NCBI RefSeq assembly: GCF_004010195.1
Contig: NC_057726.1
Coordinates: forward strand, 61,492,794 to 61,556,793
Reading direction: 5' to 3'
Source: Chiloscyllium plagiosum
Lineage: Eukaryota
Length of the DNA: 64,000 nt
The translations under genes and the position numbers were made by a program. How positions within the stretch are numbered: position 1 is the first letter of the stretch; each line of letters begins with the position of its first letter. This document shows positions 208 to 60,699 of this stretch, piece by piece. The notes beneath the pieces were generated by a model, which was given only the letters and a program-made list of their open reading frames with translations, made no database searches and had not been told where the DNA came from.

Positions 208-342
<135 letters not shown>

Positions 343-2458: not shown

Positions 2459-2617
<159 letters not shown>

Positions 2618-21506: not shown

Positions 21507-21511
21507 TTGAA

Positions 21512-22288
21512 AATTTAGATCAGAGTGGTGCTGGAAAAGCACAGCAGGTCAGGCAGCATCCGAGGAGCAGGANNAATTGGTGTGGGGATGGAGGTGATAG
21601 GTCAGAGGGGAGGGTGGACAGGTGGGAAGGGAAATTGGCAGGTAGGACAGGTCATGAGGACAGTGCTGAGCTGGAAGGTTGGAACTGAGGGAGGGGTAAT
21701 GAGGAAATTGGTGAAGTCCACATTGATGCCCAAGGGTTGAAGTGTTCCAAGGTGGAAGATGAGGCATTCTTCCTTCAGGCGTCGGATGGTGAGGGATTGG
21801 CGGTAGAGGAGGCACAGGACCTGCATGTCCTCGGCAGAGTGGAGGGGGAGTTGAAATGTTGGGCCAGGGGTGGTGGGGTTGATTGCTGTGGATGTCCCGG
21901 AGATGTTCCCCGAAGCGCTCTGCGAGGAGGCGTCCAGTCTCCCCAGTGTAGAGGAGACCACATCGGGAGCAACGGATACAATAAATGAGATTGGTGATGC
22001 ATAACTGAAACTCTGATGGATGTGGAAGGCTCCTTTGGGGGCTTGGATGGTGCTGAGGGAGGCAGTGTGGGTGCAGGTTTTGCAATTCCTGCGGTGGCAG
22101 GGAAGGGTGCCAGGAGGGTAGTGTGGTTTGTTGGGGTGTGTGGACCTGACCAGGTAGTCACAGAGGGAACGGTCTTTGTGGAAACTGGAAAGGGGTGGGA
22201 AGGAAATATATCCCTGCTGGTGGGGTCCGTTTGGAGGTGGCGGAAATGTTGGCGGATGATATGGTTAATGCGAAGGTTGGTAGGGTGG
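21512..22288 (-). mobile_element. Penelope-like retroelement, GIY-YIG endonuclease region, running into the gap
   Basis: Minus ORF NLIYCIRCSRCGLLYTGETGRLLAERFGEH and RRLKEECLIFHLGTLQPLGINVDF. Terminal sequence shared with 28355 and, inverted, with 29675. Confidence 0.85.
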
Positions 22289-22788
22289 NNNNNNNNNNNN
22301 NNNNNNNNNNNNNNNNNNNNNNNNNNNNNNNNNNNNNNNNNNNNNNNNNNNNNNNNNNNNNNNNNNNNNNNNNNNNNNNNNNNNNNNNNNNNNNNNNNNN
22401 NNNNNNNNNNNNNNNNNNNNNNNNNNNNNNNNNNNNNNNNNNNNNNNNNNNNNNNNNNNNNNNNNNNNNNNNNNNNNNNNNNNNNNNNNNNNNNNNNNNN
22501 NNNNNNNNNNNNNNNNNNNNNNNNNNNNNNNNNNNNNNNNNNNNNNNNNNNNNNNNNNNNNNNNNNNNNNNNNNNNNNNNNNNNNNNNNNNNNNNNNNNN
22601 NNNNNNNNNNNNNNNNNNNNNNNNNNNNNNNNNNNNNNNNNNNNNNNNNNNNNNNNNNNNNNNNNNNNNNNNNNNNNNNNNNNNNNNNNNNNNNNNNNNN
22701 NNNNNNNNNNNNNNNNNNNNNNNNNNNNNNNNNNNNNNNNNNNNNNNNNNNNNNNNNNNNNNNNNNNNNNNNNNNNNNNNNNNNNNNN
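22289..22788. other. Assembly gap (500 N)
   Basis: Run of N. Confidence 1.
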
Positions 22789-25245
22789 CATGGTCTTCAG
22801 TTCTGTCTGTCTCCTTGTAGGGTACATGGAACTTCCCTTATCCTTATCCCATTCAGGTCCTGCCCCACAACTCTTTCCCTGTTTCATCGCTAATTCATCA
22901 GTGCTTCTTCTGACTCTCATCAAAAACTGGAAAAAGTGATTAATTTCACTTTCAATTTCTACCCTGCTCCTACCTTCTCCTAGTTCATCTCTGACTCCTC
23001 CCTTCCCTTCCTCGACTTTCTGTTTCTTTTTCTGGGTATATTTCTGGCCACCAATTTTCATTACAAACCCACCAACTTCCACAGTTACATGGGCTATCAA
23101 TCCTCACACTGCAAATCCTGTAAAGACTCCTTTCCATTCCAAGTTCTCCATTTGCATCACATCTGTTCTGATGATGCTACCTTCAGTAGGGGGGTCACAG
23201 AAATATCCACTTTTTTTCTCATCCAAGGATTCTCTGCTACATGTTTAAGAGGGCCTTCAGCCATTTCTGATCCATCTCCCATTCTTCTGCCCTCACTCAT
23301 CTTCATCCACAATACCGATAGGGTCCTCGTTGTCAACTTCCAGCTCACCTCCCCCAAAGTCACCATTTCTGACACCTCCCATGGGGAGCCACCACCAGAC
23401 ACACATGCCTTTCCCCTCCTTTGCCACCAATCTGCCACCCTTGCCCACTCATCCTCCACTCCCAACACACCCTTACACTCCCACGTCACCTTGCCATGCA
23501 GAAGGGGCAACACTTTCCCGTTTACATTCTCCATCCTCACTATCTAATGTCTCAGATGCACCTTGCAGGTAGGGCACTGATTTACCTGCACTTTACTCAA
23601 TCTAGTCTCCTGTATTCATTGCTCATAATGTAGTCACCTTTACATTGGGTAGACAAAACACAGACTGGCTTGCAGAACACCTGTGTTCTGTCTGCAAAAT
23701 GTACCCTGAGCTTCTAACTGCTTGCCGCATCAACAGATTACCATAGTCCCAGCCAACATCTCTGTCTCGGGCCTGCTGCAGTACTCCAGTGAAGCTCAGT
23801 GCAAGCTAAAAGAACAGCACCTCATTTTCCACGTGGGGATCATGTAGTCTTCAGCACTCAATGTCCAGTTCAATAATTTTAGGACCTGAACATTTATTCC
23901 ATGAATTTTACCCTCCCCCACACCCCAAGCCCAGACATGACATGAGCTGCTTTCAACATAGCCAACCGAATTTCATCTACTTATGATCCCCATCATCAAC
24001 TTTTCTTCCTCCGTGGCATGTTATCATCTATCCCTTTGCCTGCCAAACTGTCATTGTCTCTGGGTTCCATCTCCGCCTATCTGTTCTCTCCCTCTCTCCC
24101 ACACCAAACATGGCTTCAGCAAAAATACCACCCTTTCCTAGTTGCTATCAGTTCTGAAAAATGGTCACTGAACTCAAAATATTAACTCTGCTTTCTCTCC
24201 AGAGATGCTGGCAGGCTTTCTGAGTTTCTCCAGCATTTTCTCTTTTTTTCCAACATCCACAGTTCTTTGTTTTGTCTGGATGGCAAGTTAGATGTCATAA
24301 GCTTTCGTCCTTTGACCCCAACTATTTACAATCTACATTAACAACTTGGAAAGAGAGATTGAATGCCCTATATTTGCGGAAGACACAAAAATAGGCAGGA
24401 TGGTAAATTGCAATGATGAAATAAGAACCTTACAAATGAATATAGATAGATAAGGTGAGTGGTCCAATATGTGGCAGATAAATGGCTAAGTGGCTGATTG
24501 TGAGGTCATGCATTTGGCTCAGAAAAATGGGAATGCAACCTATTATCTTAATGGGTAGAGACTTCGTGGTACTCTGGTGCAGATGGATTTAGGTGTACTC
24601 ATTCATGAGTCAGAGAAAACTGGCATGAGGTACAGTAAATACTAAAGAACGCGAATGAAATGTTGGCTTTTATAGCTTCAGGAAAATAATATAACGTTAG
24701 GGAAGTATTGTTGCAACAAGACAAGGTATTGTTGAGACCGCGCCTGGAGTGTTGTGCACAGTTTTGGACCTCTTATTGAGGAAAGATGTAATGGCATTGG
24801 AGAAAGTTCAGAGGAGGTTCATGGATTGATCCCAGAGATGAGAGATTTGTCATATGAAGAGAGATTGTACAATTTAGGCCTATACTCACTGGAATTTCGC
24901 AGAATGAGGGGAGATCAAATTGGGGTATTCATGATGATAAAAGGTATAGATGCAATAGACGTGGAGCAAATAGAGTCATAGAGATGTACAGCTCAGAAAC
25001 AGATTATTCAGTCCAACTCATCCATGTTGACCAGATATCCCAACTCAATCTGTTCCCACCTGCCAGCAGCTGGCCCATATCCCTCCAAACCCTTCGTATT
25101 CATATATTTATCCAGATGCCTTTTACATGTTGCAATCGTACTAGCCTCCACCACTTCCTCTGGCAGCTCATTCCGTATAAATACCATGCTCTGCATGAAA
25201 ACGGTTTCCCTTAGGTCTCTTTTATATCTTTTCCCTCTCATCCTA
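22789..25245. mobile_element. PLE remnant (+, to ~24275), CR1 fragment (+, ~24280-24970) and CR1 3' end (-, ~24972-25245); block paralogous to 50533-52890
   Basis: Near-identical spurious ORFs in both blocks (e.g. 23089-23547 vs 50833-51291). CR1 peptide LSYEERLYNLGLYSLEFRRMRGD. Confidence 0.8.
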
Positions 25246-25435
25246 ATTTCATTTTACTTGTTAAGAATTTGAGGAATATTTTGATTCTTTTCACATTTAT
25301 TACACTTTGGGAATTAATACAGGTTGCAACCACACGTTTCCCCGTGTTTGGACAGTTGTTCAACTGCCTGTCTACTCTCTAAACCCAGATTGGAGCACTG
25401 GACCATTTCACTGTTGCCAATGTTTCCAGTCTTAC

Positions 25436-25729
25436 CTGGATTGACGGTGTAGTTGACACTGGCGGGTACAGGAAGGGAAACATGTGACACCAGACAGGTA
25501 TAAACCACTCCAGTCCTGACGGGATGCGCTTCTTCCAAAGAGCTGGAAACCTCATAAAGTCCATCTGCTGTCTTCTTCACGGTTTGTATACTGGTCAGAT
25601 TTTCGACACCATCTCTTCGCCAGGTGATACCGACAGGATCCGGGTAACAGGCAGCGGTTTTACACACGAGTTTCAAGGAATCGGCGGAAATCCCTTCAAC
25701 TTGAATGAGCTTCAGTGGCAACGGCGACA
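25436..25729 (-). CDS. Receptor copy B, Ig C1-set domain exon
   Basis: 294 bp, same splice sites as copy A, open frame, 4 aa differences from A. Confidence 0.9.
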
Positions 25730-26938
25730 CTTAAAGGAGAAAATAAAAATTTAATGGAATATCTCCTCATTTGACTACATCCGTGATGCTGTTACATTCA
25801 TAGCGTGACAATACTTATACTCATTATCGTTTAATTTTAAAATTGAAGTTTTCTATCCCCACAACAAAATAGCAGGAACATGCGAAACGATAAGCAAAGA
25901 GCTTGAATCTCCCAGGACTGGTAACACGAAGGAAGACAGACACAATGTTCGGAAAGAGATCCTGGAACGGGATTGGGTTTAGCAGCAGTCGGACCTCTGA
26001 GCAAATGTTTCGAAGACAGTATACCTCAGTGTGCTGCTGAATCCTTTCTCCCCTTAGCGCGGTAGGGAAGGTTTGCGGTACTGAACATTTTGTCTCGCAA
26101 ATTTCCCTAAAGCATATCCTGAAGAAGAGTCAAATCAAATTTCGAACGTTAACTCTATATCTCTCCGCAAATGCTGCCACATCCATTGGGATTTTTGTTG
26201 TTGACTTCCTCCTTTACACCTCACCCCTGCACCTTATCATTATTTTTTAGGTAGGGATAGCCATGACTGCCCCGGAGTCTCCTGCAGTGCATTCCAGATC
26301 CTTAGAAAACTTTGCTGAAAGACTTTGCTGACTGTTTTGGAAATTATCTTAAATTTGTATCCTCTGTTTGTTCTCCACCCATGGGAACAGCTTATCAGGT
26401 TTATACCGTCCTTAGCCTTGTTAATTACTGATCAGTGTGAAGTTCATAACATCCGCAAAGATGCAGAATCCAAGACGGAAAATTCCATTTCTGAGCGCAC
26501 GTCTTACAAAATTCCAGAGTTTTTGTACTTCCCTACATGACCCAGGAGATGTTAGAATTGTTCCCATTGTCGCACATCAACATGGTTACTTTGGAGAGAA
26601 GGGACAAATGCCTACTTAACTCATTGATTCATTCCAAACCAAAATTTAAACTTCTATTCTATGTCGTTATCTTCGTTTGTGAAGAATTATAAGTGAACAA
26701 AAATAACTGTTTGGAGATAAAACCCTTTCAAATATCAGGAGAGAAAACGAGTTAAATTGATCTTAAACTAAAGTACTCAAATAGCGAGAGTGAACCGGTT
26801 GCTGTTTAACACGAACTCAATGACAAAGAAACACAACTCAATTTAAAAGCAATTCGAAGAATCTTCACTTAGCGATAAAAAAATTGCACGTGTCTAATAA
26901 AACTGAAAAGCAGCCTATCCCGGTACAAGGATCCTTAC

Positions 26939-27244
26939 CGTAAACAGTCAGCTGTGTGCCACCTCCATCGTCAATCCACCTTCGCCGGTGCTTTACCTCA
27001 CAGAAATACACTCCGGCGTCAGCAAAACTGGCGTTTAGGATCTTAAAAGAACTTGTTCCCTTGATTGTATTGATTCGCTTTCTGCTGTCTGGCTCCAGAA
27101 ACGATTCCTCACCCCGTCTCCGCCAATAAACATCAGGAGTTTCTTCAAAGATAGGAAACATGCAGAACATGGAAACATTCCCACCTCTGGTGACGCTCAA
27201 CAACTTCGGGAACTGTTTCACTTTTCTCAAAGTTACTTCAGCCG
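26939..27244 (-). CDS. Receptor copy B, Ig VJ-type domain exon
   Basis: 306 bp, splice sites intact. 2 nt differences from copy A, both non-synonymous (K>E, N>I). Confidence 0.9.
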
Positions 27245-27960
27245 CTATCAGAAAAGAAAGAGTCACGATAATATTTGCAAACGAACATACACCACACGAA
27301 GTAAGATTAGGCCTTTCAGCCTCTTAAACCTGCTCGGCTAGTCAATAATTCTGTTCTGACTGCAGCTTCGACTCCGCTTTCCCGCGTATCCCTGAGAACC
27401 TTTCAACTCGTTGCTTGATGAGAATACGACAGACATAGGGAAAAAAGGACTTCGCGAATTAAAATGCAAGAACTGTTGAAAACTCTAGCAAAGTGGAGCA
27501 GCACAGTGTTTAATTGTACAACGCAGAGCTATTGCACCATCCTCTAAAAAGAATGCAAAAGATTTGGCGTAGGAGCATGTCGTAATGAAACGTACCTGTC
27601 CAAATTATGCCAAGGAGAGTCATATACGGTACTATAACTGTCACCAACATATTTTAGATTTTTAAAAACGTCGTTGGTTTGTTGTTGTAGATGTGGATAG
27701 TGTACTGAATGGTTTGGTAGGAAAATTATATCAAACCGATTACCATGATCTAAGATGTCACATGACAAGTGTTGCGTCCCAGATGTCTAGGAACTGGGAG
27801 GTTCCCTGATCACTACAGGTTGAGCAGATTCTATCTAATGGCAAAGTCTTGCTGACACTACCAGCTTTTCCATAATTTATCAACAACAATGTTCGTACCT
27901 TGGCTCAGTCTGAAAATAATTGTTCAGGTCGGAGGCATGGCCATGTCTCCAGTATCTCAC

Positions 27961-28015
27961 CTCCATGCAGGGCAGTGAGAGTGAGAAAATATTTAGCCTG
28001 GGCCTGAAAGTCCAT
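27961..28015 (-). CDS. Receptor copy B, leader exon MDFQAQAKYFLTLTALHG(A)
   Basis: 55 coding bp, donor GAG/gtgaga, phase 1. Homologous to 19937-19991. Confidence 0.75.
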
Positions 28016-28354
28016 TACAATCTGAAGCAGAAATCACTGGAATAACAATTAAAATTAATAAATCTGCTCAATTCCCGTTCTCCCGTCCAGGACTGTCGAT
28101 GATAATATTAGTTTTACTCACGTTAGATGTGAAATTCCAGACCACTGTTCACTTGGTTCGCAGTTGCAGTTATTGATCTAACAGCCTGAAAGGCAGCAAA
28201 TAGTATTCACGGGCTTTTTGTTGGGCATTTCCAAATGAAACTGCGCGGAGAAGCAGAATAAAGAGACCACCATTTTGCTGAGAGCAATTAAAAGAAAGGA
28301 TAACAATGGAAGTGGGAACAAAGGCGGAAATTGCTGGAGAAACTGAAGGTCTGA

Positions 28355-29705
28355 GTTTAGATCAGAGTGGTGCTGGAAAAGCACAGCAGGTCAGGCATCA
28401 TCCGAAGAGCAGGAAAATCGATATTTCAGGCAAGCGCCTTTAATCAGGAATAGAGGCAGGAAGCCTGCTGGGTGGAGAGATAAATCAGAGGGGTGGGGAG
28501 AAAGTAGGATACAGTACAATAGGTGAATGGGGGTGGGGATGGAGGGAATAGATCAGAGAGGAGAGTGGAGTGGATAGGTGGGAAGGAAGATAGGNNNNNN
28601 NNNNNNNNNNNNNNNNNNNNNNNNNNNNNNNNNNNNNNNNNNNNNNNNNNNNNNNNNNNNNNNNNNNNNNNNNNNNNNNNNNNNNNNNNNNNNNNNNNNN
28701 NNNNNNNNNNNNNNNNNNNNNNNNNNNNNNNNNNNNNNNNNNNNNNNNNNNNNNNNNNNNNNNNNNNNNNNNNNNNNNNNNNNNNNNNNNNNNNNNNNNN
28801 NNNNNNNNNNNNNNNNNNNNNNNNNNNNNNNNNNNNNNNNNNNNNNNNNNNNNNNNNNNNNNNNNNNNNNNNNNNNNNNNNNNNNNNNNNNNNNNNNNNN
28901 NNNNNNNNNNNNNNNNNNNNNNNNNNNNNNNNNNNNNNNNNNNNNNNNNNNNNNNNNNNNNNNNNNNNNNNNNNNNNNNNNNNNNNNNNNNNNNNNNNNN
29001 NNNNNNNNNNNNNNNNNNNNNNNNNNNNNNNNNNNNNNNNNNNNNNNNNNNNNNNNNNNNNNNNNNNNNNNNNNNNNNNNNNNNNNNNNNNNNNNNNNNN
29101 NNNNNNNNNNNNNNNNNNNNNNNNNNNNNNNNNNNNNNNNNNNNNNNNNNNNNNNNNNNNNNNNNNNNNNNNNNNNNNNNNNNNNNNNNNNNNNNNNNNN
29201 NNNNNNNNNNNNNNNNNNNNNNNNNNNNNNNNNNNNNNNNNNNNNNNNNNNNNNNNNNNNNNNNNNNNNNNNNNNNNNNNNNNNNNNNNNNNNNNNNNNN
29301 NNNNNNNNNNNNNNNNNNNNNNNNNNNNNNNNNNNNNNNNNNNNNNNNNNNNNNNNNNNNNNNNNNNNNNNNNNNNNNNNNNNNNNNNNNNNNNNNNNNN
29401 NNNNNNNNNNNNNNNNNNNNNNNNNNNNNNNNNNNNNNNNNNNNNNNNNNNNNNNNNNNNNNNNNNNNNNNNNNNNNNNNNNNNNNNNNNNNNNNNNNNN
29501 NNNNNNNNNNNNNNNNNNNNNNNNNNNNNNNNNNNNNNNNNNCAATTTATCTCTCCACCCTGGAGGCTTCCAGCCTCTATTCCTGGTGAAGACCTTTTGC
29601 CCGAAACGTCGATTTTCCTGCTCCGCGGATGCTGCCTGACCTGCTGTGCTTTTCCAGCACCACTCTGATCTAAACTCTGGTTTCCAGATTCGGCAGTCCT
29701 CACTT
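28355..29705. mobile_element. Penelope-like element ends in inverted orientation on either side of the gap
   Basis: gtttagatcagagtggtgctggaaaagcacagcaggtcaggca at 28355 is the reverse complement of about 29633-29675. It interrupts the sequence homologous to copy A position ~20330. Confidence 0.7.
28595..29542. other. Assembly gap (948 N)
   Basis: Run of N. Confidence 1.
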
Positions 29706-32254: not shown

Positions 32255-33956
32255 GAGGCACTCCCACACAAAAGCAGAACCACACGGACACGAGCGTTCG
32301 GCAAGTCACATCAATATGGCGCCTGCAACGTAGTAGAATATCAAGGTGATTGGCAGGGAACATTAGAGATTGAAGAATTTTTCGGTGAAAACACCTTGGT
32401 CAGAGAGGCAGGTTTTAAAAGAGGAGACAAAAACAGACTTGATTCGGTATGAACTTCTAAAGATTAGGACCTGTGTAGTCCAGGAAATGGTGAAATGCAA
32501 GAAATTGGACTTAGACAAGAGATAAGAATTGGAGCAGAGGCGGTGTCCTGGATTGGAGGGATTTAAAATATTAAAGAGAATTTCAAACGTAAGACGTATT
32601 AAGGCAATGTGGCTCAACGAATATGGAACAACGAATGAATTGTTCTTGAGATGAGTTATATGTAGATACACTTTAGCCTGCCCAAAAAAATATCAAAATA
32701 TAGACGCATACTTAAAACCGGCGCGCAAGCTGACTTGGTGCTGTGCACATATTCACACACGTACATGAAAAGGGGGCATTGGTGACGTGAAAATGGGAAT
32801 GGAGCGGACGCTACATTTCCCGTCTCATACAACTTCGCTGTTTTCCCAACACTCTTCCGTTTATTTCACGTCATGGCCTTCTGCAACATTTTGGTAATTC
32901 CGGTTGCTACCCCAGCACAGCGGCTTAACTAAATTGACAAATTATTTTATCGGTAATGGCAACACTGGGTTCTCTTCATTGGAAAGATTGTTACCTCCTA
33001 CCTTTGCCACATTACCTGTATTCATCCCACCTCAATCCATTAAATTCCATTATGAGCGCTTGGAAATTAATGGAATCAATAAACAAAAAAAAGACTGTTT
33101 ACAAAGTGAGGCACTCCCACACATAAGCAGAACCACACGGACACGAGCGTTCGGCAAGTCACATCAATATGGCGCCTGCAACGTAGTAGAATATCAAGGT
33201 GATTGGCAGGGAACATTAGAGATTGAAGAATTTTTCGGTGAAAACACCTTGGTCAGAGAGGCAGGTTTTAAAAGAGGAGACAAAAACAGACTTGATTCGG
33301 TATGAACTTCTAAAGATTAGGACCTGTGTAGTCCAGGAAATGGTGAAATGCAAGAAATTGGACTTAGACAAGAGATAAGAATTGGAGCAGAGGCGGTGTC
33401 CTGGATTGGAGGGATTTAAAATATTAAAGAGAATTTCAAACGTAAGACGTATTAAGGCAATGTGGCTCAACGAATATGGAACAACGAATGAATTGTTCTT
33501 GAGATGAGTTATATGTAGATACACTTTAGCCTGCCCAAAAAAATATCAAAATATAGACGCATACTTAAAACCGGCGCGCAAGCTGACTTGGTGCTATGCA
33601 CATATTGACACACATACATGAAAAGGGGGCATTGGTGACGTGCAAAATGGGAATGGAGCGGACGCTACATTTCCCGTCTCATACAATTTCGCTGTTTTCC
33701 CAACACTCTTCCGTTTATTTCACGTCATTGGCAACATTTTGGTAATTCCGGTTGCTACCCCAGCACAGCGGCTTAACTAAATTGACAAATTATTTTATCG
33801 GTAATGGCAACACTGGGTTCTCTTCATTGGAAAGATTGTTACCTCCTACCTTTGCCACATTACCTGTATTCATCCCAACTCAATCCATTAAATTCCATTA
33901 TGAGCGCTTGGAAATTAATGGAATCAATAAACAAAAAAAAAGACTGTTTACAAAGT
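32255..33956 (+). repeat. Near-identical tandem duplication, unit ~853 bp
   Basis: gaggcactcccacac starts at 32255 and 33108. Identical spurious ORFs 853 bp apart (32363 and 33216). Both units end in gactgtttacaaagt. Confidence 0.95.
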
Positions 33957-36442: not shown

Positions 36443-36682
36443 AATTGACATTCACTCAATCTGGTCGATCTCCAGATGAACAGTTAAAATATGAAGGAGA
36501 ATGACACTACTTTGCAACAAAAAAAACCCCTAAAGAACTGTGGATGCTGGAAATCGGAAATAAATTGACATTCACTCAATCTGGTCGATCTCCAGATGAA
36601 CAGTTAAAATATGAAGGAGAATGACACTACTTTGCAACAAAAAAAACCCTAAAGAACTGTGGATGCTGGAAATCGGAAATAA
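36443..36682 (+). repeat. ~120-bp direct tandem duplication
   Basis: aattgacattcactcaatctgg...gctggaaatcggaaataa occurs twice; the unit includes the start of the adjacent short element (to ~36778). Confidence 0.9.
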
Positions 36683-40352: not shown

Positions 40353-40493
40353 TCAGCTTCTTTTGTTCGTTGCCAGCTTTATATCTGCATATACTGTGCA
40401 TTTGTCCAGAGATATAGGTGGTGATTTGTGTTTTGGAATTAGCAAGCTTCAAGTGGCATACGCCAAATTGTCATCTCGGCTTCCTTGTTTAGT
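40353..40493 (-). pseudogene. Receptor copy C, last exon: ITIM interrupted by TGA (LAYAT*), downstream ITSM TVYADI untranslated
   Basis: Acceptor tactttcacag identical to copy A. Reads TKQGSRDDNLAYAT*SLLIPKHKSPPISLDKCTVYADIKLATNKRS*, with TGA at 40449-40451. Same Tyr-Tyr spacing (23 codons) as copy A. Confidence 0.82.
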
Positions 40494-41869: not shown

Positions 41870-44080
41870 GAGTTTACATGTTACTGAGGATTATATCTGC
41901 AATGAATGTCATTGGTTGCAAATCCGATCAGATCGAATGGATCAGTTAAAAAGATAGTTAGAGGCAATGCGGAATTTACAAGAGCAAGGGAATGTGATGG
42001 ATGGCAGTTGTGGGAAGCGGGGAAAGTCGCAGATCCAGTCACACAGATGGTTTAACTCTAGGAAAGGTAAGAGAGGTTGGCAGGTAGTGCAGAAGTCTTC
42101 TGTGACTATCCCCATTTCAAACAAGTATGCTGTTTTGGAAAATGCATGAGGTAATGGATTCTCAGGGGAATGTAACATGAACAACCAAGGTTTTGGTATT
42201 GATACTGGTTCTAATGTAATGAGGGGTACATGGGGTTCCAAGAGATCGATTGTGTTAGGTGACTCTCTAGTCCGAAGTACAGACAGATGTTTCTGTGGTC
42301 AGCAGTGGAAAATCAGAATGATTTGTTGCTTCCCTGGTGCCAGGACCAAGGGTGTCTCAGAGAGTGTGCAGAATGTTCTCATGGGGGATGGGGCCAGCAG
42401 AAGGTCATTGTACACATTGGAACAATGACAGAGGAAGGGAAAAGGATGAGATTCCGCAGGGAGATGACCGTGAGTTAGGCAGGAATTTAAAAAGGAGGTC
42501 TTCGAGAGTAGTAATATCTGGATTACTACCGGTGCTATGAGCTAGCGAGGCCAGGAATACGAGGATAGAGCAGATGAATGCAAGGCTGAGGAGCTGGTGA
42601 GGTACTGGTGAACTGGAGGTTGGCTAAAGTGGTGCCACAGTTTAAGAAAGGTGGTAAGGACAAGCCAGGGAAGTACAGACCAGTGAGCGTGATTTTGGTA
42701 GTGGGCAATTTGTTGGAGGGAATCCTGAGGGACAGGATGTACATGTATTTGGAAAGGCAAGGACTGATTTGGAATAGGCAACATGGCTTCGTGTATGGGA
42801 AATCATGTCTCACAAACTTGATTGAGCTTTTTGAAGAAACATCTCTATGATTATGACTCTAAGTTACAAAGAGGATTGATGATGGCAGAGCAGTAGACGT
42901 GATCTATATGGAACTCAGTAAGGCGTTTGACAAACTTCCCCATGGGAGACTGGTTAGCATGTTTAGAGCTCATGGAATACAGGGAGAACTAGCCATTTAG
43001 ATACAGAACTGGCTCAAAGGTAAAAGACATAGGGTGGTCGTGGAGGCTTGTTTTTCAGACTGGAAGCCTGTGACCAGTCAAGTTCTACAAGGGTCGGTGC
43101 TGGGTCCACTACATTTCATCATTTAGATAAATAATTTGGATGTGAGCATAAGAGGTATAGTTAGTAAGTTTGCAGATAACACCAAAATTGGAGAGGTAGT
43201 GGACAGCAAAGATAGTTACCTCAGATTATAACGTGATCTTGATCAGAAGGGCCAATGGGCTAAGAAGTGGCAGATAGAGTTTAATTTAGATAAATGCGAG
43301 GTGCTACACTTTGGAAAAGCAAAGCTTAGCAGGACTTATATACTTACTGGTAAGGTCCTAGGGAGTGTTGCTGAGCAAAGAGACCTTGGAGTGTAGGTTC
43401 ACAGCTCCTTGAAAATGGAGTTGCAGGCAGATAGGATAGTGAAGAAGGCGTTTGGTATGCTTTCCTTTGTTGGTCAGAGTATTGAGTACAGGAGTTGGGA
43501 GGTCATGTTGTGGGTGTACAGGACATTGGTTAGGCCACCGTACAATTCTGGTCTCCTTCCTATGGGAAAGATGTTGTGAAACTTGAAATGGATCAGAAAA
43601 GATTTACATGGATGTTGCCAGGGTTGGAGGATTTGTGCTATCGAGAGAGGTTGAATAGGCTGGGACTGGTTTCCCTGCAGCGTCAGAGGCAGAGGGGTTT
43701 CCTTATAGAGGTTTATAAAATCATGGTGGGCATGGATCAGATAAATACACAAAGTATTTTCCCTGGTGTAGGGGAGTCCAGAACTAGAGGGCATAGGTTC
43801 AGAGTGAGAGGGGAAAGATATAAAAGGGAGCTAATGGGCAACTTTTTCACACAGAGGGTGGTATGTATATGGAACAAGCTGCCAGAGGAAATGGTGGAGC
43901 CTAGTAGAATTGCAACATTTAAAAATCATCTGGATGGGTATATGAATAGGAAAGGTTTAGAGCGAGATGGACTGGGTGCTGGCAGGTGGGATTAGACTGG
44001 GTTGGGTTATCTGGTCGGCATGGACAAGTTAGACCAAAGTATCTATTGCCGTGCTGTACGTCTCTGTGACTCTATGACTC
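41870..44080 (+). mobile_element. CR1-clade LINE with ORF1 esterase remnant joined to the RT/3' region, inserted in a short PLE-derived element (41780-44160)
   Basis: IVLGDSLVR...CCFPGA (SGNH/GDSL-like ORF1), NWRLAKVVPQFKKGGKDKPGKYRPVS (RT), tail tgactctatgactc. Confidence 0.9.
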
Positions 44081-47031: not shown

Positions 47032-47075
47032 CAGCTGTTGAGTTTCATCCACTTCCACAGAATGTTTCCTAACAC
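47032..47075 (-). pseudogene. Receptor copy C, small cytoplasmic exon (G)VRKHSVEVDETQQL, downstream of the premature stop
   Basis: Acceptor cttttctttcctttag as in copy A, donor CTG/gtaagg, 44 bp, phase 1-0. Confidence 0.78.
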
Positions 47076-48855: not shown

Positions 48856-48961
48856 CAGCTGATGCCTTTAACTCAAGTCTTGTTAAAATGATTATCAATA
48901 GTAAAATTGCCAGAATGCCACCTGCCCATCTAGAGATAATTGAGATAATTGAGATCTTTAC
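48856..48961 (-). CDS. Receptor copy C, TM-homologous exon with +1 frameshift: reads (G)KDLNYLNYL-stop; TM (SRWAGGILAILLLIIILTRLELKASA) is out of frame
   Basis: Acceptor attctatag and donor CTG/gtaaga conserved, but the exon is 106 bp against 105 in copy A. TAG at 48930-48932; tandem CTCAATTAT repeat at the indel. Confidence 0.82.
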
Positions 48962-49464: not shown

Positions 49465-52400
49465 CAGAAACTCCTGGAGCAAATCAGCTGGTCCAGCAGC
49501 ATCTGTGGAGAGAGAAACTGATTAAATAATTTGAGTCTAGGGGCCCTTCTTTAGAACTGATAGCAGCTAGGAAAAAGTGGTATGTATGCTCAAGACAAAT
49601 ATTGGGATATGGAGAGTGGAGGTGGAGAAAGGGGTGAGCAGAAAGGCAGAGATGGAGCCAAAAGAGAGAGAACAGCATTCGGACAATAAAAAAGGATGGA
49701 TGACAACATGCCAGGAAAATAAAAAGCTGACATTGGTGATCATAACTAGATGAAAATTGGTTGACTGTGCTGAAAGCAGCTCATGTCATTGCCAGGATCT
49801 GCGGTGTGAGTATCAGGCTGCAATATCCGCAAGTGGAAAATGAAATGCTGCTCTTCCAGCTTGCACTGCGGCTTGATGCATCACTGCAGCAGGTCTGAGA
49901 CAGGAATGTTTGCCAGGGAACATGGTGGTATGCTGAAGTGGCAGCAACTGGAAACTCATTTTTAAGGACAGAATGAAAGTTTGATTGCAAAGCTGTTGCC
50001 TGGTCTGCATTCTGTCTCACCAGTGTATAGGAGACAACATTGTGAGCTGTGAATATAATATATAGGTATTCACTGCTTCACTTCGAAGCTGTGTCTGGAT
50101 TAGAGTGTGAGGAGGAAGGAAGTAAATGGGCTACCACAATATATAACCTACTAATATCTTCTTCCCAAAATCTAGCAACAGGAATGGCAGGGCAGAGCCA
50201 CTGTTCCTGCCACACAGACCTAATCTCTTCATACCTTGATTCAACATTTTCTCCCATTCTCAGCTCAGTTCCCATTAATATCCATGATTTATGTGAAATT
50301 TTGCATCTGTTTAGAGTTTCCAGTTTGTGGGCAGCAACTGCCTCATCTTCATTTTGGATGTACAATGCGTTTACACATCCACCTTCTGTCATGGTGGTTT
50401 TATGGTTCCCCACTTGAACTGTCCCTATTCACCAACCCTCTTCTATCTGGCCAAGGTTGTCCTCACTTTGAAGAACATCTCCTTTTCCTCCTCTCACCTT
50501 CTTCAGATCAAAGGTTCGGCTATAGATACCTGCATGGTCTTCAGTTCTGTCTGTCTCCTTGTAGGGTACATGGAACTTCCCTTATCCTTATCCCATTCAG
50601 GTCCTGCCCCACAACTCTTTCCCTGTTCCATCGATAATTCTTCAGTGCTTCTTCTGACTCTCATCAAAAACTGGAAAAATTGATTAATTTCACTTTCAAT
50701 TTCTATCCTGCTGCTACCTTCTCCTAGTTCATCTCTGACTCCTCCCTTCCCTTCCTCGATTTTGTATTTCTTTTTCTGGGTATATGTCTGGCCACCAATT
50801 TTCATTACAAACTCACCAACTTCCACAGTTACATGGGCTATCAGTCCTCACACTGCAAATCCTGTAAAGACTCCTTTCCATTCCAAGTTCTCCATTTGTA
50901 TCACATCTGTTCTGATGATACTACCTTCAGTAGAGGGGTCACAGAAATGTCCACATTTTTTCTCATCCAAGGATTCTCTGCTACATGTTTAAGAGGGCCT
51001 TCAGCCATTTCTGATCCATCTCCCATTCTTCTGCCCTCACTCATCTTCTTCCACAATACCAATAGGGTCTTCGTTGTCAACTTCCAGCTCACCTCCCCCA
51101 AAGTCACCATTTCTGACACCTCCCACGGGATGCCACCACCAGACACACATGCTTTTCCCCTCCATTGCCACCAATTTTCCACCCTTGCCCACTCATCCTC
51201 CACTCCCAACATACCCTTACACTCCCATGTCAGCTTGCCATGCAGAAGGTGCAAAACTTTCCCATTTACTTTCTCCATCCTCACTATCTAATGTCTCAGA
51301 TGCACCTTGCAGGTAGGGCACTGATTTACCTGCACTTTACTCAATCTAGTCTCCTGTATTCTTTGCTCATAATGTACTCACCTCTAAATTGGGGAGACAA
51401 AACACAGATTGGCTTGTTCTGTCTGCAAAAATGTCCCCTGAGCTTCCAACTGCTTGCCGCATCAACAGATTACCATGGTCCCAGTCAACAACTCTGTCTC
51501 GGGCCTGCTGCAGTACTCCAGTGAAGCTCAGTGCAAGATAGAAGAACAGTACCTCATTTTCCACATGGGGATCATGTAGTCTTCAGCACTCAATGTCCAG
51601 TTCAATAATTTTAGGACCTGAACATTTATTCCATGAATTTTACCCTCCCCCACACCCCAAGATCCCTTTGCCTGCCAAACTGTCATTGTCTCTGGGTTCC
51701 ATCTCCGCCTATCTGTTCTCTCCCTCTCTCCCACACCAAACATGGCTTCAGCAAAAATACCACCCTTTCCTAGTTGCTATCAGTTCTGAAAAATGGTCAC
51801 TGAACTCAAAATATTAACTCTGCTTTCTCTCCAGAGATGCTGGCAGGCTTTCTGAGTTTCTCCAGCATTTTCTCTTTTTTTCCAACATCCACAGTTCTTT
51901 GTTTTGTTTGGATGGCAGGTTATAACTACTGGAGTGCCATAAGGTTTGGTCCTTTGACCCCAGCTATTTACAATCTACATTAACGACTTGGAAAGAGAGA
52001 TCGAATGCCCTATAGGCAAATTTGCGGAAGACACAAAAATGAGCAGGATGGTAAATTGCAATGATGAAATAAGAACCTTACAAATAAATATAGATAGGTA
52101 AGGAGAGTGGGCCAATATGTGGCAGATAAATGGCTAAGTGGCTGATTGTGAGGTCATGCATTTGGCTCAGAAAAATGGGAAAACGACCTATTATCTTAAT
52201 GGGTAGAGACTTCGTGGTGCTCTGGTGCAGATGGATTTAGGTGTACTCATTCATGAGTCAGAGAAAACTGGCATGAGGTACAGTGAATACTAAAGAAAGC
52301 GAATGGAATGTTGGCTTTTATAGCTTCAAGAAAATAATATAAAGGTAGGGAAGTATTGTTACAACAGTACAAGGTATTGTTGAGATCGCGCCTGGAGTGT

Positions 52401-52890: not shown

Positions 52891-53079
52891 CTAATTTCAT
52901 TTTACTTGGTAAGAATTTGAGGAATATTTTGATTCTTTTCCCATTTATTACACTTTGGGAGTTAATACAGACTGCATCCACACCTTTCCCCGTGTTTGGA
53001 CAGCTGTTCAACTGCCTGTCTACTCTCTAAACCCAGATTGGAGCACTGGTCCATTTGTTGCCAATGTTTCCAGTCTTAC

Positions 53080-53373
53080 CTGCATTGACGGTGTAGTTGA
53101 GACCGGCAGGTTCAGGAAGGGAAACATGTGACACCAGACAGGTATAAACCACTCCGCTCCTGACGGGATGCGCTTCTTCCAAAGAGCTGGAAACCTCATA
53201 AAGCCCATCTGCTGTCTTCTTCACGGTTTGTATACTGGTCAGATTTTCGACACCATCTCTTCGCCAGGTGATACCGACAAGCTCCGGGTAACAGGCAGCG
53301 GTTTTACACACGAGTTTCAGGGAATCGGCGGAAATCCCTTCAACTTGAATGAGCTTCAGTGGCAATGGCGACA
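53080..53373 (-). CDS. Receptor copy C, Ig C1-set domain exon
   Basis: 294 bp, splice sites intact, open frame, 6 aa differences from copy A. Confidence 0.92.
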
Positions 53374-54464
53374 CTTAAAGGAGAAAATAAAAATTTAATG
53401 GAATATCTCCTCATTTGCCGACATCCGTGATACTGTTACATTCATAGCGTGACAATACTTATGTTCTTTATCGTTTAATTTTAAACATTGAAGTGTTCTA
53501 TCCCCACAACAAAATAGCAGGAATATGTGAAACGATAAGCAAAGAACTTGAATCTCCCAGGACTGGTAACACGAAGGAAGACAGTCAGAATGTTCGGAAA
53601 GAGATCCTGGAACGGGATTGGGTTTAACAGCAGTCGGACCTCTGATAAAATCTTTCGAAGGCAGTACACCTCTTTGTGCTGCTGAATCCTTTCTCCCCTT
53701 AGTATAGTTGGGAAGGTTTGCGGTACTAAACATTTTGTCTCGCACATACCTTAAAACATTTCCGAAAGAAGAGTCAAACCAAACTAGAAACGCTAACTTC
53801 ATCTCTCTTCACAAATGCTGCCAGATCCACAGCAATTCTCTTTGCTTGTTTCCTCTTTTTCAGCACATCCCTGCAGCTTTTAAAGTTTTTTCCCTGATAG
53901 GTATAAAGTTCCCTTTTGTCTGCTAAGATTGCACCAAGGTGTCCGGTAGTGCCCTCCAGATCCTTACAAAACTGCTGTTAATGATTTTCTGACTGTTGTA
54001 CGTGACTGTTTTGCAAATTATCTGAAATCTACGTCCTCTGTTTGTTCTTCACCAATGGGAACAGCTTATCTGGTGTATACTGTCCTTTAACCTTTAACAG
54101 ACGTGAATCAGTGTCCGTACAACCTGTAGGTATCATATAACCTGAGATATGGGGCCTTGTTAAGTTTGCATTATTTGTGAGATTATTGAGGAACAATTTG
54201 ATGTTTTCCTTATGTGCATACTTTTCTAAAAATTGCAAAACATAAAATACCATAAAATATGGTCATTATCAATTTGCAAGTTTCGTTACATTTTATGGTC
54301 AACAGAACTGCATTAAGTGCATAGCCCAGACTCAGGATTGCGTCATTCTTTAACCCTGGATCTACGTTAGTTAAGGGTGGCAAATATGTGATCCAGGAGA
54401 TGTTAGAATTGTTCCCACTGTCACATGTCGGCATGGTCACTTTGGAGAGAAGGGATCTTGTCTT

Positions 54465-55790
54465 CGAGTCATAGAGTTGGACAGAATGGAAACAGGCTCT
54501 TCGGTCCAACTCATCCCTGAGAAGCAGATATCCCAACCCGTCCCACCTGCCAGCTTTCGGCCCATATCCCTTGAAACCCTTCCTATTCATATATCCATCC
54601 ATATGCTTTTAAGTGTTATAATAGTGCTAGCCTCCACCACTTCCTCTGGCATCTCATTCCATATACATACCACCCTTTGCGTGAAAACGTTACCCCGTAA
54701 GCCTCTTTTATAACTTTCCTCTCTCACCCGAAACCTATGCTCTCCAGTTCTGTACTCCCACACCCCAAGGAAGAGACTTTGTCTATTTATCTGATTCATG
54801 CCCCTCATGATTTTTATAGACCTCTATAAGGTCACCTCTCAGCCTCCATCGCTCCAGGGAAAACAGCAGCAGCTTATTCAACCAAGCGCCGTTACTTGTG
54901 GCACTTCAGTGGTCACAGGCCTCCAGCGAGAAAAACGACCCTCCACCACCACCCTCTGGCTTCTTTCTTTGAGCCAGTTCCGTATCCAAATGGCTAATTC
55001 TCCCTGTATTCCATGAGATCTAACCTTGCTAACTGGTCTCCCATGTGGAACCTTGTTGAACGCCTTACTGAAATCCATATAGCTCATGTCCACCGCTCTG
55101 CCCTCATCAATCCTCTTTGTTACTTCTTCAAAAAACTCCATCAGGTTTGTTAGACATGATTTCCCACGCACAAAGTCATGTTGACTGTCCCTAATCAGTC
55201 CTTGCCTTTCCAAATATATGTGTATCCTGTCCCTCAGGATTCCCTCCAATAATTTGTCCACCACCGATGTCAGGCTCACTGGTCTATAGTTCCCTGGCTT
55301 GTCCTGACCACCCTTTTTAAACAGTGACACCACGTTAGCCAGCCTCCAGTCTTCTGGCACTTCACCTGTGACTATCGATGATCCAGATATCTCAGCAAGG
55401 GGCTCAACAATCCCTTCCCTAGCTTCCCACAGAGTTCTAAGGTACCCCTGATTAGGTCCTGGGCATTTATCCACTTTTATGCGTTTCAAAACATCCTGCA
55501 CTTCCTCTCCTGTAAAATGGACATTTTTCAAGATGTCACCATCTATATACCTACATTCTATACCTTCCATGTCCTTTTCCACAGTAAATACTGATCCTGT
55601 GGTTCCACACAAAGACCGCCTTGTTAATCTTTGACGGGCCCTGTTCTCTCCCTAGTTACCCTTTTCTCCTTAATTTATTTGTGAAAACATTTTGGATTCT
55701 CCTTAATTCAACTTGCCAAAGCTATCTCATGTCCCCTTTTTGCCTTCCTGATTTTCCTCTTAAGTATATACCTACTGTCTTTCTAAACCT
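54465..55790 (-). mobile_element. CR1-clade LINE fragments inserted in the V-C1 intron of copy C only
   Basis: 244-aa RT ORF piece (VPEDWRLANVVSLFKKG...YRPVSLTS...YMDFSKAFNKVPH). Absent from copies A and B at the homologous site. Confidence 0.92.
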
Positions 55791-56099
55791 CATTGAGTCA
55801 TTCCAAACCAAAATGTAAACTTGTATTTCAGTATCATGTTTTGATAAGAATTGCAACTGGACAAACATAAAGCTGTTTGGAGATACAACCGTTCCAAGTA
55901 TCAGGAGAGCAAGCGAGTTAAATTGATCTTAAACTAAAGTACTCAAATAGCGAGAATGAATCGGTTAACATGAACTCAATGACAAAGAAACTACGAGCCA
56001 ATGTAAAAGCAATTTGAAGAACCTTCACCTAACGATAAAAAAATTTGCACGTATCTAATAAAACTGAAAAGCAGCCTATCCCGATACAAGGATCCTTAC

Positions 56100-56405
56100 C
56101 GTAAACAATCAGCTGTGTGCCACCTCCATCGTCAACCCATCTCCGCCGGTGCTTTACCTCACAGAAATACATTCCGGCGTCAGCAAAACTGGCGTTTAGG
56201 ATCTTAAAAGAACTTGTTCCCCTGTTTGTATTGATTCGCTTTCTGCTGTCTGGCTTCAGAAACGATTCCTCACCCCGTCTCCGCCAATAAACATCAGGAG
56301 TTTCTTCAAAGATAGGAAACATGCAGAACATGGAAACATTCCCACCTCTGGTGACGCTCAACAACTTAGGGAACTGTTTCACTTTTCTCAAAGTTACTTC
56401 AGCCG
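56100..56405 (-). CDS. Receptor copy C, Ig VJ-type domain exon
   Basis: 306 bp, splice sites intact. 7 nt and 4 aa differences from copy A by hand count. Confidence 0.92.
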
Positions 56406-57127
56406 CTATCAGAAAAGAAAGAAAAGCCAAGTTAATACACTGTATTTGATAAGAACATATACCACACGGAACAAGATTAGGCCGTTCAGCCTCTCAAACC
56501 TGTTCGCTATTCAATAATTCTGTTCTGATTGCAGTTCAAATCCGCTTTCCCGCGTATCCCTGACAACCTTTCAACCCGTTGCTCGGTAAGAATAGGATAG
56601 ACACAGGGCAAAGAAAAACCTTAGCGAAGTAAAATGCAAGAACTATTGAAAATGAAAGCGATCGAAGTGGAGCAGAACAGTGTTTGATTGTACAATGTAG
56701 AGCCATTGCAGTATACAATAAAATAGGGCATAACGGATTTGGTGTAGCACCATTTAACAACTGAACGTACCTGACCCAATGATGCCAAGTAGAGTTATGT
56801 ACTGTACTGTAACCCTCAGCAACATACTTCAGATTTTATTAAAAAGGTTCATTTGTTTGTTTTTGTAGATGAGGATAGTGTACCGAATGGTTTGGTTGGA
56901 AAACTTTCTCAAGCATATGACCATGACAAGAGATATCAAATGACGAGTGTTGAGTCCCAGAAGTCTGAGGACTTCCGCCGACTGAGCAGTTTCTACCTGA
57001 AGGCAAAGTCTTGCTGACATTATCCGCTTTTCAATAATTTATTAACAACCGCCTTGGCTCAGTCTGAAAATAATGGTTCAGGTCGGAGGCATGGCCATGT
57101 CTCCAGTATCTCACCTAAAGTATTCAC

Positions 57128-57514: not shown

Positions 57515-58035
57515 GAGTGTTGTGAAACTTGAAAGGGTTCAGAAAAAAATTACAAGGATGTTGCCAGGTTTGGAGGATTTGAGCTATAGAGAGGGGTTGC
57601 ATAGGTTGGGGCTGTTTTCCCTGGAGCGTCAGAGGCTGAGGGGGTGACCTTATAGAGGTTTGTAAAACCATGGAGGGCATGAATCGGAGAAATAGGCAAA
57701 GTCTTCTCCCTGTTGTGGGAGAGTTCAGAACGATAGGGCATGTGTTTGGGTGAGAGGGGAAAGATATAAAAGCGACCTAAAGGGCAACCTTTTCGCACAG
57801 AGGTTGATGCGTGTATGGAATGAGCTGATACAGGAATTGGTGGAGGCTGGTACAATTACGATATACAATATTTAAAAGGCATCTGGATGGCCATATAAAT
57901 AGGAAGGGTTTGGAGAGATATTGGCCAAGTGCTGGTAAATGGGACTAGATTAGATTAGGGTATCTGGTCGGCATGGACGAGTTGGGCCGAAGGGTCTGTC
58001 TCCGTGCTGTACGTCTCTATGGTCCTATGACTCTT
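57515..58035 (+). mobile_element. CR1 LINE 3' end inserted into a short element upstream of the copy C leader
   Basis: Peptide KLERVQKKITRMLPGLEDLSYRE; tail ctctatggtcctatgactct. Absent in copy A. Confidence 0.85.
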
Positions 58036-60699
58036 ATCTGTGGGAGGAGAGCAGAGTTACAATTTCGAGTCCGGAGACCCTTCATCAGAACCCCAACAAA
58101 TGGAAGTGGGACTTTGGTTATTCACAGTGTTCAGTTTCTTGCAGCTTCCAAATCTGTTCGGTCTTTTTTTTTAAAAACCTGGAAATGCAAATCATTCAGG
58201 AGTTCTGTTCGTCACCGCCGTCCATCTGAAGTATGCACACTTGGAAAATGGTTAACAACAGGACAGGACTACCCCGCTTCTTCTCAGTAGTCTCTATATC
58301 TTTTGTCAATCGCCTTTACTCTTTGTTATTTGGTTTCCGACCCTTCTATAACTGGGAACAGTTTTCTTTAATTTGCCTTTTGAAAATGTTGTGAACTCTG
58401 AACCTCAATTCGCCCACCCCTCTCGACTCTAACGAAGAAAATCTCCAGTTTCTCCACATAGTTAAATCCTATGACCTCGTTTCATTGTCGTACCTTCTGC
58501 GGTGTTTCCATTTTCGTGAAACCCTCCCTAAAGGGTCGACGGAGATTTGAACATAACACTCCAGCTGAGACCTAAATAGTTCTTAACAAATGTTTCGTGC
58601 AACTTATTTGCTTTATGCACCATCGCTCTATTCACAATGCTAAGAATCTGCTTTGCCTTTTCATTTGGCCTGCAACCCTCAAATATTCCACATGCACCCC
58701 AGGCCTTTCACTGAATTCTCTTATTTTCTACCAACAGTAAAATGTGAGTAATTCCATTATTTAAGACTTTCCCCGCAGTTTCGTGTTCAGGTAAGTTAAT
58801 TAAGACTGTAGTTCCTTCGGATAAATGTAGAAGCAGTGGTATTCTAATTAACGACAGGGCTGCATGTCAAATTATTAAACTGCGCTCAGGCCTGCTCTTG
58901 GATCTGAACATGAATACAGATTTAGGCTTTTGCGAAATGTATGATAATGCAATGAATTTGAGACGATTGTATTGTGAGTAAGCGACTTCTGTCGTGACAG
59001 TTTGATCATGAAGGATGACTGTCTAACTCAAATTGCCCCCACCTCACTCCTCAATGAACCCCAGCGACTGGCCAGCTGCGCGCCATATATACAATTCAAT
59101 TATCCTCGCTCGGGGTTTTCATGAACACAAATCGTATGAAGCTCATGGTATTTACCCATGGAACAGTGCCTCTATTGCACAGCGTAGTGCTGTGAGTATC
59201 TCGGTTGTTTCGAGTGTACCTTGCCACAGCCACTGCAAACAATTAGGGGTCCTGGCAACCTCCTCACATTAGGACGAATGACGTGTGTTCTAGAACATGG
59301 GAAGGCCTCAGCCAAACTGTTTCAACACACCATCAGTGGCATGTACCCAAATATTTGAAAGTATCCCACTTAAATATCCTGTCCACAAAACAAAAGCAGG
59401 ATGAATCAAATCTGGGCAATTAACGTTTCGTCAGCCTACTCTTCGACAGAGAGCTGAAAGGTGGTGTCCACAGTGCTATCAGGCGAAATTTGCACAATCA
59501 TCTGCCCACTGTTCAATGTGAGTTCTATCAAATCTAGTGTTCCTCAGTGCACATTACAGCTTTGGTGTAAGCATTATCAAAGAGCTAGAGGTGAGATGAA
59601 CTTGATATCAAGGTAGCCTTTGTCCATGTATGGCCCGAAGGAAACCTAGGAAACATGGTCAATGGAAATCAGACGCTGTGGAGTGGATGTAGCGGTAGAA
59701 ATAGCTCCTCACTGATTGGATTTACATCGGGCACAGGGAAGATTGTTGCGTTTTTTTGGTGAATCGTTTCAGAACCCAGGACGCTGCTGCAAGATGACTG
59801 TAGGGCGGTGTTCTGGCCCAATCATTTCAGTTGCTTTTTCGTGATCTTCCCTCCAGCATGAAGTTAATAGTGTACGCGTTCACTAATGATTGCACAATCT
59901 TCATTACCAGTTCGCCAGAAGCTGAGAGGACATGTCCAGATGCAGCAAAGCCAAAACAATATTCAGTCTTCCGCTTAATAGTGGCTAGTAATGTTCACAC
60001 CACAGAAGTACCATTTGGTTCACTGACGTCCTTTAGAGAAGGAAATCTGCTTTCCTTTTCTGGTCTTGCCTCTACGTGACTCCAGATCCACAGCAAGGTG
60101 GTTGATTTTTAACTGCCCTTTCGAATGGGCATTAATTGGTTGTTTGCTTTGATGACAATCGACAGGTTACGTGGTTGACGATGGGATAGTTTTCATTGCG
60201 AATTTGTATCAGGTCACAGTTTTGCTGCAGGTTTAACCTTCAATTGAGGGACTGTGATAAAATATGAAAAACAGTTTTGATTTTTTAAGACTGATCTTAT
60301 TGTTTTCTTGTTTAAAACCAACATTGTAGAGACAGATCTTTTCGCATAGTCAATTTTTTTGTTCCCCTTGAGCGTCCTCGTATCTTTGTTCATCTAAACC
60401 TTTCATTCTAGCCTTTGTCCAGCTTCCAGCTATATGGATCGAAACTGCTTGGCCCAGTCACTTCCCTTAAGCTTCATTTCTCCCACAACTGTGGAAACGA
60501 GGGTGGAGGAAAGAGAGCAATACAAATTTGACGGAAGGAGAGTTGGTGGCGGCCAATGATATGTCGTGAGGTTTAACTTTCGCCAGAAGACTTTAGTGCT
60601 TCTTCCCGATAATTAGGCGACTGCGTGAATTAGAATAACTTCTATTTTATGTAATATTTGCTTTGTGTTGTACAAAGTCATGAAATTACACGAAAATAT

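Follow-up and report, generated by a model that had tools for sequence, protein, structure and literature searches.

Probable conversion-type exchange over the V and C1 exons of an ITIM-bearing gene and its arginine-bearing neighbours, likely paired receptors, in a bamboo shark gene cluster

The window analysed here, a stretch of 64,000 nucleotides of Chiloscyllium plagiosum (G000:C17:61492794-61556793), belongs to an assembly of 101,977 contigs. Self-comparison revealed three segment copies on the minus strand of the window, at 10-21 kb (copy A), 22.8-28.6 kb (copy B) and 40-58 kb (copy C), each of which carries a V-set exon and a C1-set exon. The exons of copy A match the C. plagiosum RefSeq model P0020, which is composed of leader, V, C1, transmembrane (TM), short cytoplasmic and last exons, and the tail exons match at 100%. 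They are located at 19559-19613 (leader), 18893-19198 (V, 306 nt with AG/GT ends), 17075-17368 (C1), 13054-13158 (TM, with an uncharged best hydrophobic window and present in P0020), 12449-12483 (first cytoplasmic exon, to which P0020 maps at 100%) and 10263-10415 (last coding exon). The corresponding exons of copy C were placed at 56771-56825 (leader, identified through its horn shark and catshark homologs), 56100-56405 (V, 306 nt, AG/GT; Pfam V-set, E 5.8e-10), 53080-53373 (C1), 48856-48961 (TM, arginine type), 47032-47075 (predicted first cytoplasmic exon, AG/GT, with an acceptor homologous to that of A) and 40449-40493 (last coding exon). Copy B sits between two N gaps, from gap to gap at 22789-28594, with leader, V and C1 exons at 27650-27596, 27244-26939 and 25729-25436, respectively. 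A further copy, D, lies outside the window (V exon at about G000:C17:61656187-61656492) and is the sister of C in a 24-kb duplication.

The window as assembled also shows an apparent tandem duplication of about 850 nt at 32255-33956 (98.2%), short near-identical repeats at 11140-11478 and 36443-36682, and retroelement fragments in introns and intergenic DNA (54460-55650, 42545-44080, 50500-51300 and 21500-22290) which, from their translations, we take to be LINE-like. The retroelement near 50.5-51.3 kb occupies an equivalent position in each of B, C and D.

A search of the assembly with the V region returned 12 matches, four of them close (C, D, A and B) and eight at 69-73%. In 864 kb of contig C17 (the window plus 800 kb), tblastn detected 15 V exons and 16 clear C1 exons across about 600 kb, each gene having a single V and a single C1 exon. 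Two orphan last exons, for which V and C1 exons were not found nearby, were observed at about G000:C17:61575800-61576000, where an N gap follows, and at 61677630-61677830; one is of the stop type and one is without the ITIM tyrosine. Of the open reading frames in the flanks, 150 were scanned against Pfam (139 of 357 on the left and 11 of 11 on the right); eight gave hits, and six of these eight were BBS2 or AMFR-type domains. Exons of both genes flank the cluster about 50-170 kb to the left of the window (L074-L079, L083-L085); AMFR and BBS2 are neighbours on human 16q as well.

The RefSeq name of gene A, 'NCR3LG1-like', is an automatic similarity label, and homologs in databases are frequently labelled SIRPalpha-like. 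Sequence searches of the ESM Atlas and the PDB gave generic immunoglobulin V/C1 matches and no ortholog. The 306-nt V exon contains the J-like end GGGTQLxV, in the form GGGTQLTV, as a germline-joined VJ. A description of the family or the cluster was not found in the literature searched, subscription papers and supplements lying outside the search, and the main text of the bamboo shark genome paper (PMC7677710) has no mention of 'SIRP' or 'gene conversion'. From its sequence, the cluster thus appears to be a shark V-C1 family beside AMFR and BBS2, undescribed in the literature searched: a new member for a known mechanism.

The V exons of A (19198-18893) and C (56405-56100) differ at 7 of 306 nucleotides, four differences being non-synonymous and three synonymous, exactly as counted in the first-pass annotation. 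The abrupt drop of identity noticed there just past the acceptor was located 21 nt outside the acceptor, where the tract has its 5' edge; its 3' edge lies about 55 nt into intron 2. This tract in copy C (56045-56426) was the best-scoring low-divergence segment of the A-C alignment, with 8 differences in 379 columns. Its score of 56.3 was reached in none of 2000 shuffles (best 21.4), and the longest identical A-C run, 145 nt, in none of 10000 (best 98). The similarity that had been described for the C1 exon and its adjoining intron likewise resolved into a tract (53063-53744), which takes in the C1 exon together with the ~370 nt of intron 2 that precede it and has 36 A-C differences in 682 columns (5.3%). 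Background divergence between A and C amounts to 284/1401 (20.3%) in gap-free upstream and intron columns, and the intron between both tracts, ~2 kb long, is 16-25% diverged in its alignable parts.

The divergence claimed earlier for the leader-V intron and the cytoplasmic exons was evident (intron 1, 66/331), and the leader exon (13/55) is not homogenised either; for the upstream region the claim held only in part, as a 106-nt island at 57157-57052 (19966-19861 in A) is 100% identical. The island precedes the start codon by ~250 nt, contains a donor-like AG/GTGAGA and shows a 13-nt gap in copy B; it may represent a non-coding first exon or a promoter element. It was also considered as the leader exon and rejected in this role, since the homologous leaders map to 19613-19559 and 56825-56771. 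The island is matched at 78% and 71% at two distant places in the cluster, so that its identity between A and C may be explained by selection, by a short conversion or by both.

This retention in distant paralogs raises, for the tracts too, the alternative of strong purifying selection on exons, splice signals and an intronic element with no exchange of DNA, an explanation with which the low non-synonymous divergence of the A-C V exons (pN 0.017) also agrees. Synonymous sites, however, are homogenised as well: 3/67 differ between the V exons (Fisher P=7e-4 against the background of 284/1401), 6/75 between the C1 exons (P=7e-3) and 9/142 in both together (P=1.5e-5). The comparison of synonymous with intron divergence exon by exon, which the first-pass annotation had proposed, therefore places the V exon far below the intron level and agrees with its view that purifying selection alone is insufficient. 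Moreover, the part of intron 2 inside the C1 tract differs at only 24/371 positions between A and C (P=1.7e-11), and this stretch found no good match in the distant paralogs, hence it is not a family-wide conserved element.

Other exons of the same genes behave differently. Between A and C/D, pS is 0.35 for the leader, 0.29-0.40 for the TM exon and 0.56 for the last exon (first 14 codons). The same exons in other genes of the cluster serve as a second control: pS of the V exon is 0.41 for F-H and 0.25 for G-I, and the V and C1 exons of these pairs (pS 0.25-0.41) are about at or above their own intron level, the intron windows being mostly 20-30% diverged. Differences at four-fold sites number 6/92 for A-C, 3/91 for A-D, 25/68 for F-H and 11/62 for G-I, the last being somewhat below its own intron level and thus a point in favour of selection. 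With synonymous and intronic sites homogenised and the control exons and pairs diverged, selection alone leaves the tracts unexplained, nor can it yield the conflict between ectodomain and tail trees described below. We consider it largely refuted and, as a full account of the data, extremely improbable. Judged from the sequence patterns, the tracts were very likely made by conversion-type exchange.

The timing of this exchange can be read against copy D. Copies C and D lie 107 kb apart and differ by 4.4% (802/18212 in four aligned blocks), and the tract edges are identical in both. At non-coding sites, the divergence between A/B and C/D is about 20%. In a four-way alignment, sites fixed between A/B and C/D numbered 219/1401 in the background, 2/306 in the V exon and 9/668 in the C1 tract. 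Within this C1 tract the distances between the lineages are all 4-9%, with A-C (4.4-6.5%) no lower than C-D (4.4-7.3%), which indicates that the last bulk exchange dates from about the time of the C/D duplication. An old duplication followed by recent conversion over V and C1, as originally inferred, is borne out by the sharp edges, the homogenised neutral sites, the diverged remaining exons and the conflicting trees; the word 'recent' is apt only in comparison with the 20% split between A/B and C/D.

Within the V exon, distances per 306 nt are 7 for A-C, 12 for A-D and 15 for C-D, a modest gap between A-C and C-D. Private changes number 5 in C, 10 in D and 2 in B, and 2 lineage sites are common to C and D. 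Residues F73, W89 and D91 are common to A, B and C. In their place D has L73, S89 and E91, three of its 10 private changes, which are the same in the Chiloscyllium punctatum model P0001, an A-type protein with an A-like read-through tail; F73, W89 and D91 therefore look derived. The three residues are bracketed by the lineage sites 56222 and 56084; this segment, no longer than ~140 nt, includes the FG (CDR3-like) loop, as assigned by the Cys and GxG sequence motifs. A later exchange between A/B and C near this loop is thus suggested by three sites polarised by one protein model. All 5 C-private changes are likewise confined to this 3' portion of the V exon, and a recent A-to-C transfer fits poorly with this crowding. 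Upstream of the gene, at 57839-59856, C and D differ by 0-2.4% per 500 nt compared with 4.4% overall, which probably marks a younger conversion tract between these two copies.

Copy B is A-like before the C1 exon (leader, V and intron 2; 4-6%) and C/D-like after it (intron 3; 4.0-6.0%), which places the switch within the homogenised C1 tract. In the direction of transcription the copies follow one another as C, B, A, and an unequal crossover would fit this arrangement. Intron 1 and the V exon (26939-27595) form a younger tract common to A and B, with differences at 4/655 sites compared with 72/1441 in its flanks (P=2.2e-8). The unplaced contig G000:C85984 starts, judged against C, exactly where B runs into the gap, and it carries an intact, in-frame arginine TM exon; we infer from its sequence that it is probably the tail of copy B. 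Positions 1-3357 of the contig (L093, L097) form a mosaic, nearer to D at 1-676 (97.3% vs 95.0%) and nearer to C at 677-3356 (96.6% vs 92.8%).

Since the assembly is fragmented, with gaps on both sides of B and its continuation on an unplaced contig, and the tracts are read from assembled sequence, the patterns might be an artefact of assembly or polishing in which reads of similar exons were collapsed, or in which B and C85984 are a second haplotype placed in tandem. Such an artefact is very unlikely as the source of the tracts. The V exons carry the private changes listed above for C, D and B in addition to the two shared C/D lineage sites, the same tract edges recur in C and D at a distance of 107 kb, and a collapse would not produce a C1 tract of 680 nt with 5% divergence. 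In addition, a similar V identity occurs in a separate assembly, that of the catshark, where predicted proteins of an ITIM-bearing (P0021) and a charged-TM model (P0007, with R and D) share 97% identity in V and 92.8% in C1, and their V regions are 65-71% identical to those of four horn shark models. The artefact is a more serious concern for the status of B as a separate gene, which may instead be a second haplotype, and for the 1-nt frameshift of C than for the tracts.

Conflicting histories of binding and signalling ends were revealed by trees of the seven genes with all parts, a set without B, E, J and the two orphan last exons. Ectodomain data gave the topology ((A,C,D),((F,G),(H,I))), and tail data gave ((F,H),(A,((C,D),(G,I)))). 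In AU tests, with groups named after the trees were seen, ectodomain data reject the groupings (C,D,G,I) with p 1e-40, (G,I) with 2e-83 and (F,H) with 1e-8, and tail data reject (H,I) with 1e-4, (F,G) with 1e-39 and, weakly, (A,C,D) with 0.02. Three pairings of an inhibitory with an arginine-type gene run across the cluster. H and I share a 4-kb block which includes the intron (2-16% per 100 nt), and F and G share an old ectodomain half only; the latter pair was rejected as a second case of exon-focused conversion, with pS of 0.20 in V and 0.33 in C1. As F-G is without exon focus and the H-I tract is intron-inclusive, exon focus is not general.

The H-I block, the whole old ectodomain half of F-G and the make-up of B, whose order (C, a 5'A-3'C hybrid, A) is as an unequal crossover predicts, could all be read to mean that reciprocal double crossovers or exon-shuffling duplications built the mosaics, rather than non-reciprocal conversion. 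The A-C tracts are, however, short (~380 and ~680 nt) with ~2 kb of diverged intron between them, and conversion is a likelier source than a pair of double crossovers so near each other; nor was a copy with the displaced, 20%-diverged V exon found among the four close matches and the eight at 69-73%. As a general explanation, reciprocal exchange is therefore unlikely, and conversion remains our preferred reading for the A-C tracts.

The signalling ends of the linked genes are of opposite types. Copy A has an uncharged TM core and, in its last exon, the ITIM VSYAVL and the ITSM TVYSEV. D, G, I and C85984 carry ISRWA at the start of the TM segment, and the arginine lies inside the best 21-residue hydrophobic window of D. 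The TM exon of copy C has a +1 frameshift (106 nt vs 105 in A) and stops early, whereas those of D and C85984 are in frame; copy C is likely a pseudogene or a soluble decoy. The tails of C, D and G end with LAYAT-stop, in C and D by a common 1-nt loss, and in C the ITIM is thus cut and the ITSM out of frame. Gene I lacks an in-frame tyrosine motif. E and H have LTYATL, a second tyrosine motif and uncharged TMs, and F has an ITIM and then a stop. Local alignment found no extra tyrosine-motif cytoplasmic exons of the E/F/H type in A, C, D, G and I, where best scores were 22-34 compared with 46-77 for E, F and H matches. The TM exon of C, D, G and I is homologous to the inhibitory-type TM exons.

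An arginine in the N-terminal part of the TM segment recruits FcR-gamma or CD3-zeta in NKp46, LILRA and GPVI. From this one residue, an activating function is predicted for D and B as the moderately more probable outcome. The V identities of linked genes are 99.3% for A-B, 97.7% for A-C, 96.0% for A-D and 95.7% for H-I, and a paired inhibitory and activating function of these genes, predicted from their sequences, appears somewhat more plausible than the contrary. The analogy to paired receptors drawn in the first-pass annotation is in fact closer than had been claimed, A having ITIM and ITSM and the C/D lineage a TM arginine without an intact ITIM. Taken together, it is quite likely that conversion over V and C1 occurred between the ITIM/ITSM gene A and the arginine-TM, ITIM-less copies C, D and hybrid B, and that these are likely paired receptors.

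A different charged TM type, with R and D, occurs in the cluster near G000:C17:62107809, followed by a stop and ~10 kb from a stop-bearing V exon. Gene J (G000:C17:62098103-62107900) and two unplaced V copies (L009, L010) have an in-frame V stop in common. The R/D type, putatively an older activating gene, is present in catshark and sevengill shark, and in bamboo shark it would survive as a stop-bearing relic. In the catshark model P0004 the TM is of inhibitory type but includes an arginine (IIGRVGG), and the tail is short; the same switch may have been gained there independently.

The following history would account for these observations. Ectopic gene conversion would have copied the V and C1 exons between the A and C/D lineages, with the bulk transfer shortly before the C/D duplication. 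Subsequently, A/B and C would have exchanged no more than ~140 nt covering the FG loop. An unequal crossover inside the homogenised C1 tract may have given rise to copy B, with an A-type 5' half and a C/D-type tail, and the younger A-B tract over intron 1 and V would have followed this crossover. The arginine copies would signal via an adaptor of the FcR-gamma/CD3-zeta type, and selection may keep those conversions which let them match the ligand of the inhibitory receptor. A broader reading, offered tentatively and with slightly less than even confidence, would be an undescribed, antigen-receptor-like VJ-C1 paired-receptor family of sharks, located beside AMFR/BBS2, in which a bamboo shark activating lineage, derived from an inhibitory-type TM exon by gain of the arginine and loss of the ITIM, replaced the R/D-type gene and captured, through recombination, the ectodomains of three inhibitory partners.

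If true, this would imply KIR/Ly49-style turnover and an arms race with pathogen decoys in the oldest jawed-vertebrate lineage, and the pattern of paired receptors, with matched binding exons and opposite signalling ends, would extend to cartilaginous fish. A VJ-C1 family is furthermore of interest for the origin of antigen receptors. Candidate pairs are A with B or D and H with I, and the FG loop is the candidate binding face. In this cluster, orthology judged from V-exon trees or from automatic names (SIRP-like, B7-H6-like) is misleading. The mechanism of conversion is already well known, so the surprise is moderate.

Among known systems are the adjacent inhibitory and activating genes SIGLEC5 and SIGLEC14, in which partial gene conversion has homogenised the first two extracellular domains (PMC4042635), and SIGLEC11/16 are grouped with them as further paired receptors. 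A fusion allele has also arisen there by crossover in the similar region, which resembles hybrid B (PMC4042635); the Siglec fusion, however, deletes a gene and gives an inhibitory protein, and B looks like the opposite product. These Siglecs are sialic-acid lectins, Siglec-14 uses DAP12 and homogenisation forms one long 5' tract, in contrast to the V-C1 structure of the shark family and the two short A-C tracts.

The closest match in the anatomy of the tracts is offered by the Xenopus ceacam pairs (ceacam301/303 and 350/351/368), where conversion is limited to the ligand-binding N exon with its splice sites, with few synonymous changes, diverged introns and later non-synonymous changes on the CC'FG face (PMC5112662). 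Activating ceacams have their own ITAM and the pairs are argued in that paper to lie in opposite orientation, whereas the shark copies have a TM arginine, A-D stand in one orientation, which is a point against the reading preferred here, and a second tract covers C1. The activating KIR and Ly49 receptors have been described (PMC2213150) as derived from inhibitory homologues by gain of TM charge and loss of the ITIM, spread by recombination and short-lived. The TM exon of C, D, G and I, with its homology to inhibitory-type TM exons, and the already broken C are similar to this; the KIR/Ly49 family is unrelated to the shark cluster.

A V domain with a J-like end followed by C1, with ITIM-bearing and charged-TM members, is reminiscent of SIRP, and SIRPalpha (2wng) was the third profile match (E 8e-32). 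The SIRP ectodomain is V-C1-C1 and its locus is syntenic with NSFL1C and FKBP1A. The shark genes are not placed in SIRP, as each has a single C1 and not two, and synteny with the SIRP locus was not supported, SEP-domain (NSFL1C-type) matches occurring only on C20 and C4 and the cluster neighbours being AMFR and BBS2. For conversion between SIRPA and SIRPB1, which the first-pass annotation had cited as a precedent, the literature search returned no paper. The V-C1 ectodomain also resembles that of NCR3LG1/B7-H6, whose human gene has the neighbours NUCB2 and KCNJ11 at 11p15.1; the near-flank scan for B7-H6 synteny (150 reading frames, eight with Pfam hits) gave AMFR and BBS2. The shark genes are not assigned to B7-H6, the name being an automatic one.

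The second profile match was UrIg2 (9dmx), and a non-rearranging joined VJ exon with C1 is common to UrIg/UrIg2 and the shark genes (PMC10751288, PMC12227049). UrIg2, however, has 10 Ig domains and UrIg lies in the MHC class III region (PMC10751288, PMC12227049), compared with a single C1 and an AMFR/BBS2 flank in the shark cluster, which in addition has 15 V exons and ITIM and charged-TM members. Filing the genes as UrIg-type was rejected, for neither several constant domains nor MHC linkage was seen in the cluster. PMC11599192 concerns single-V genes of the CD28 family and has no bearing on the shark cluster. The cluster works in the manner of SIGLEC, ceacam and KIR genes, yet it stands outside those families.
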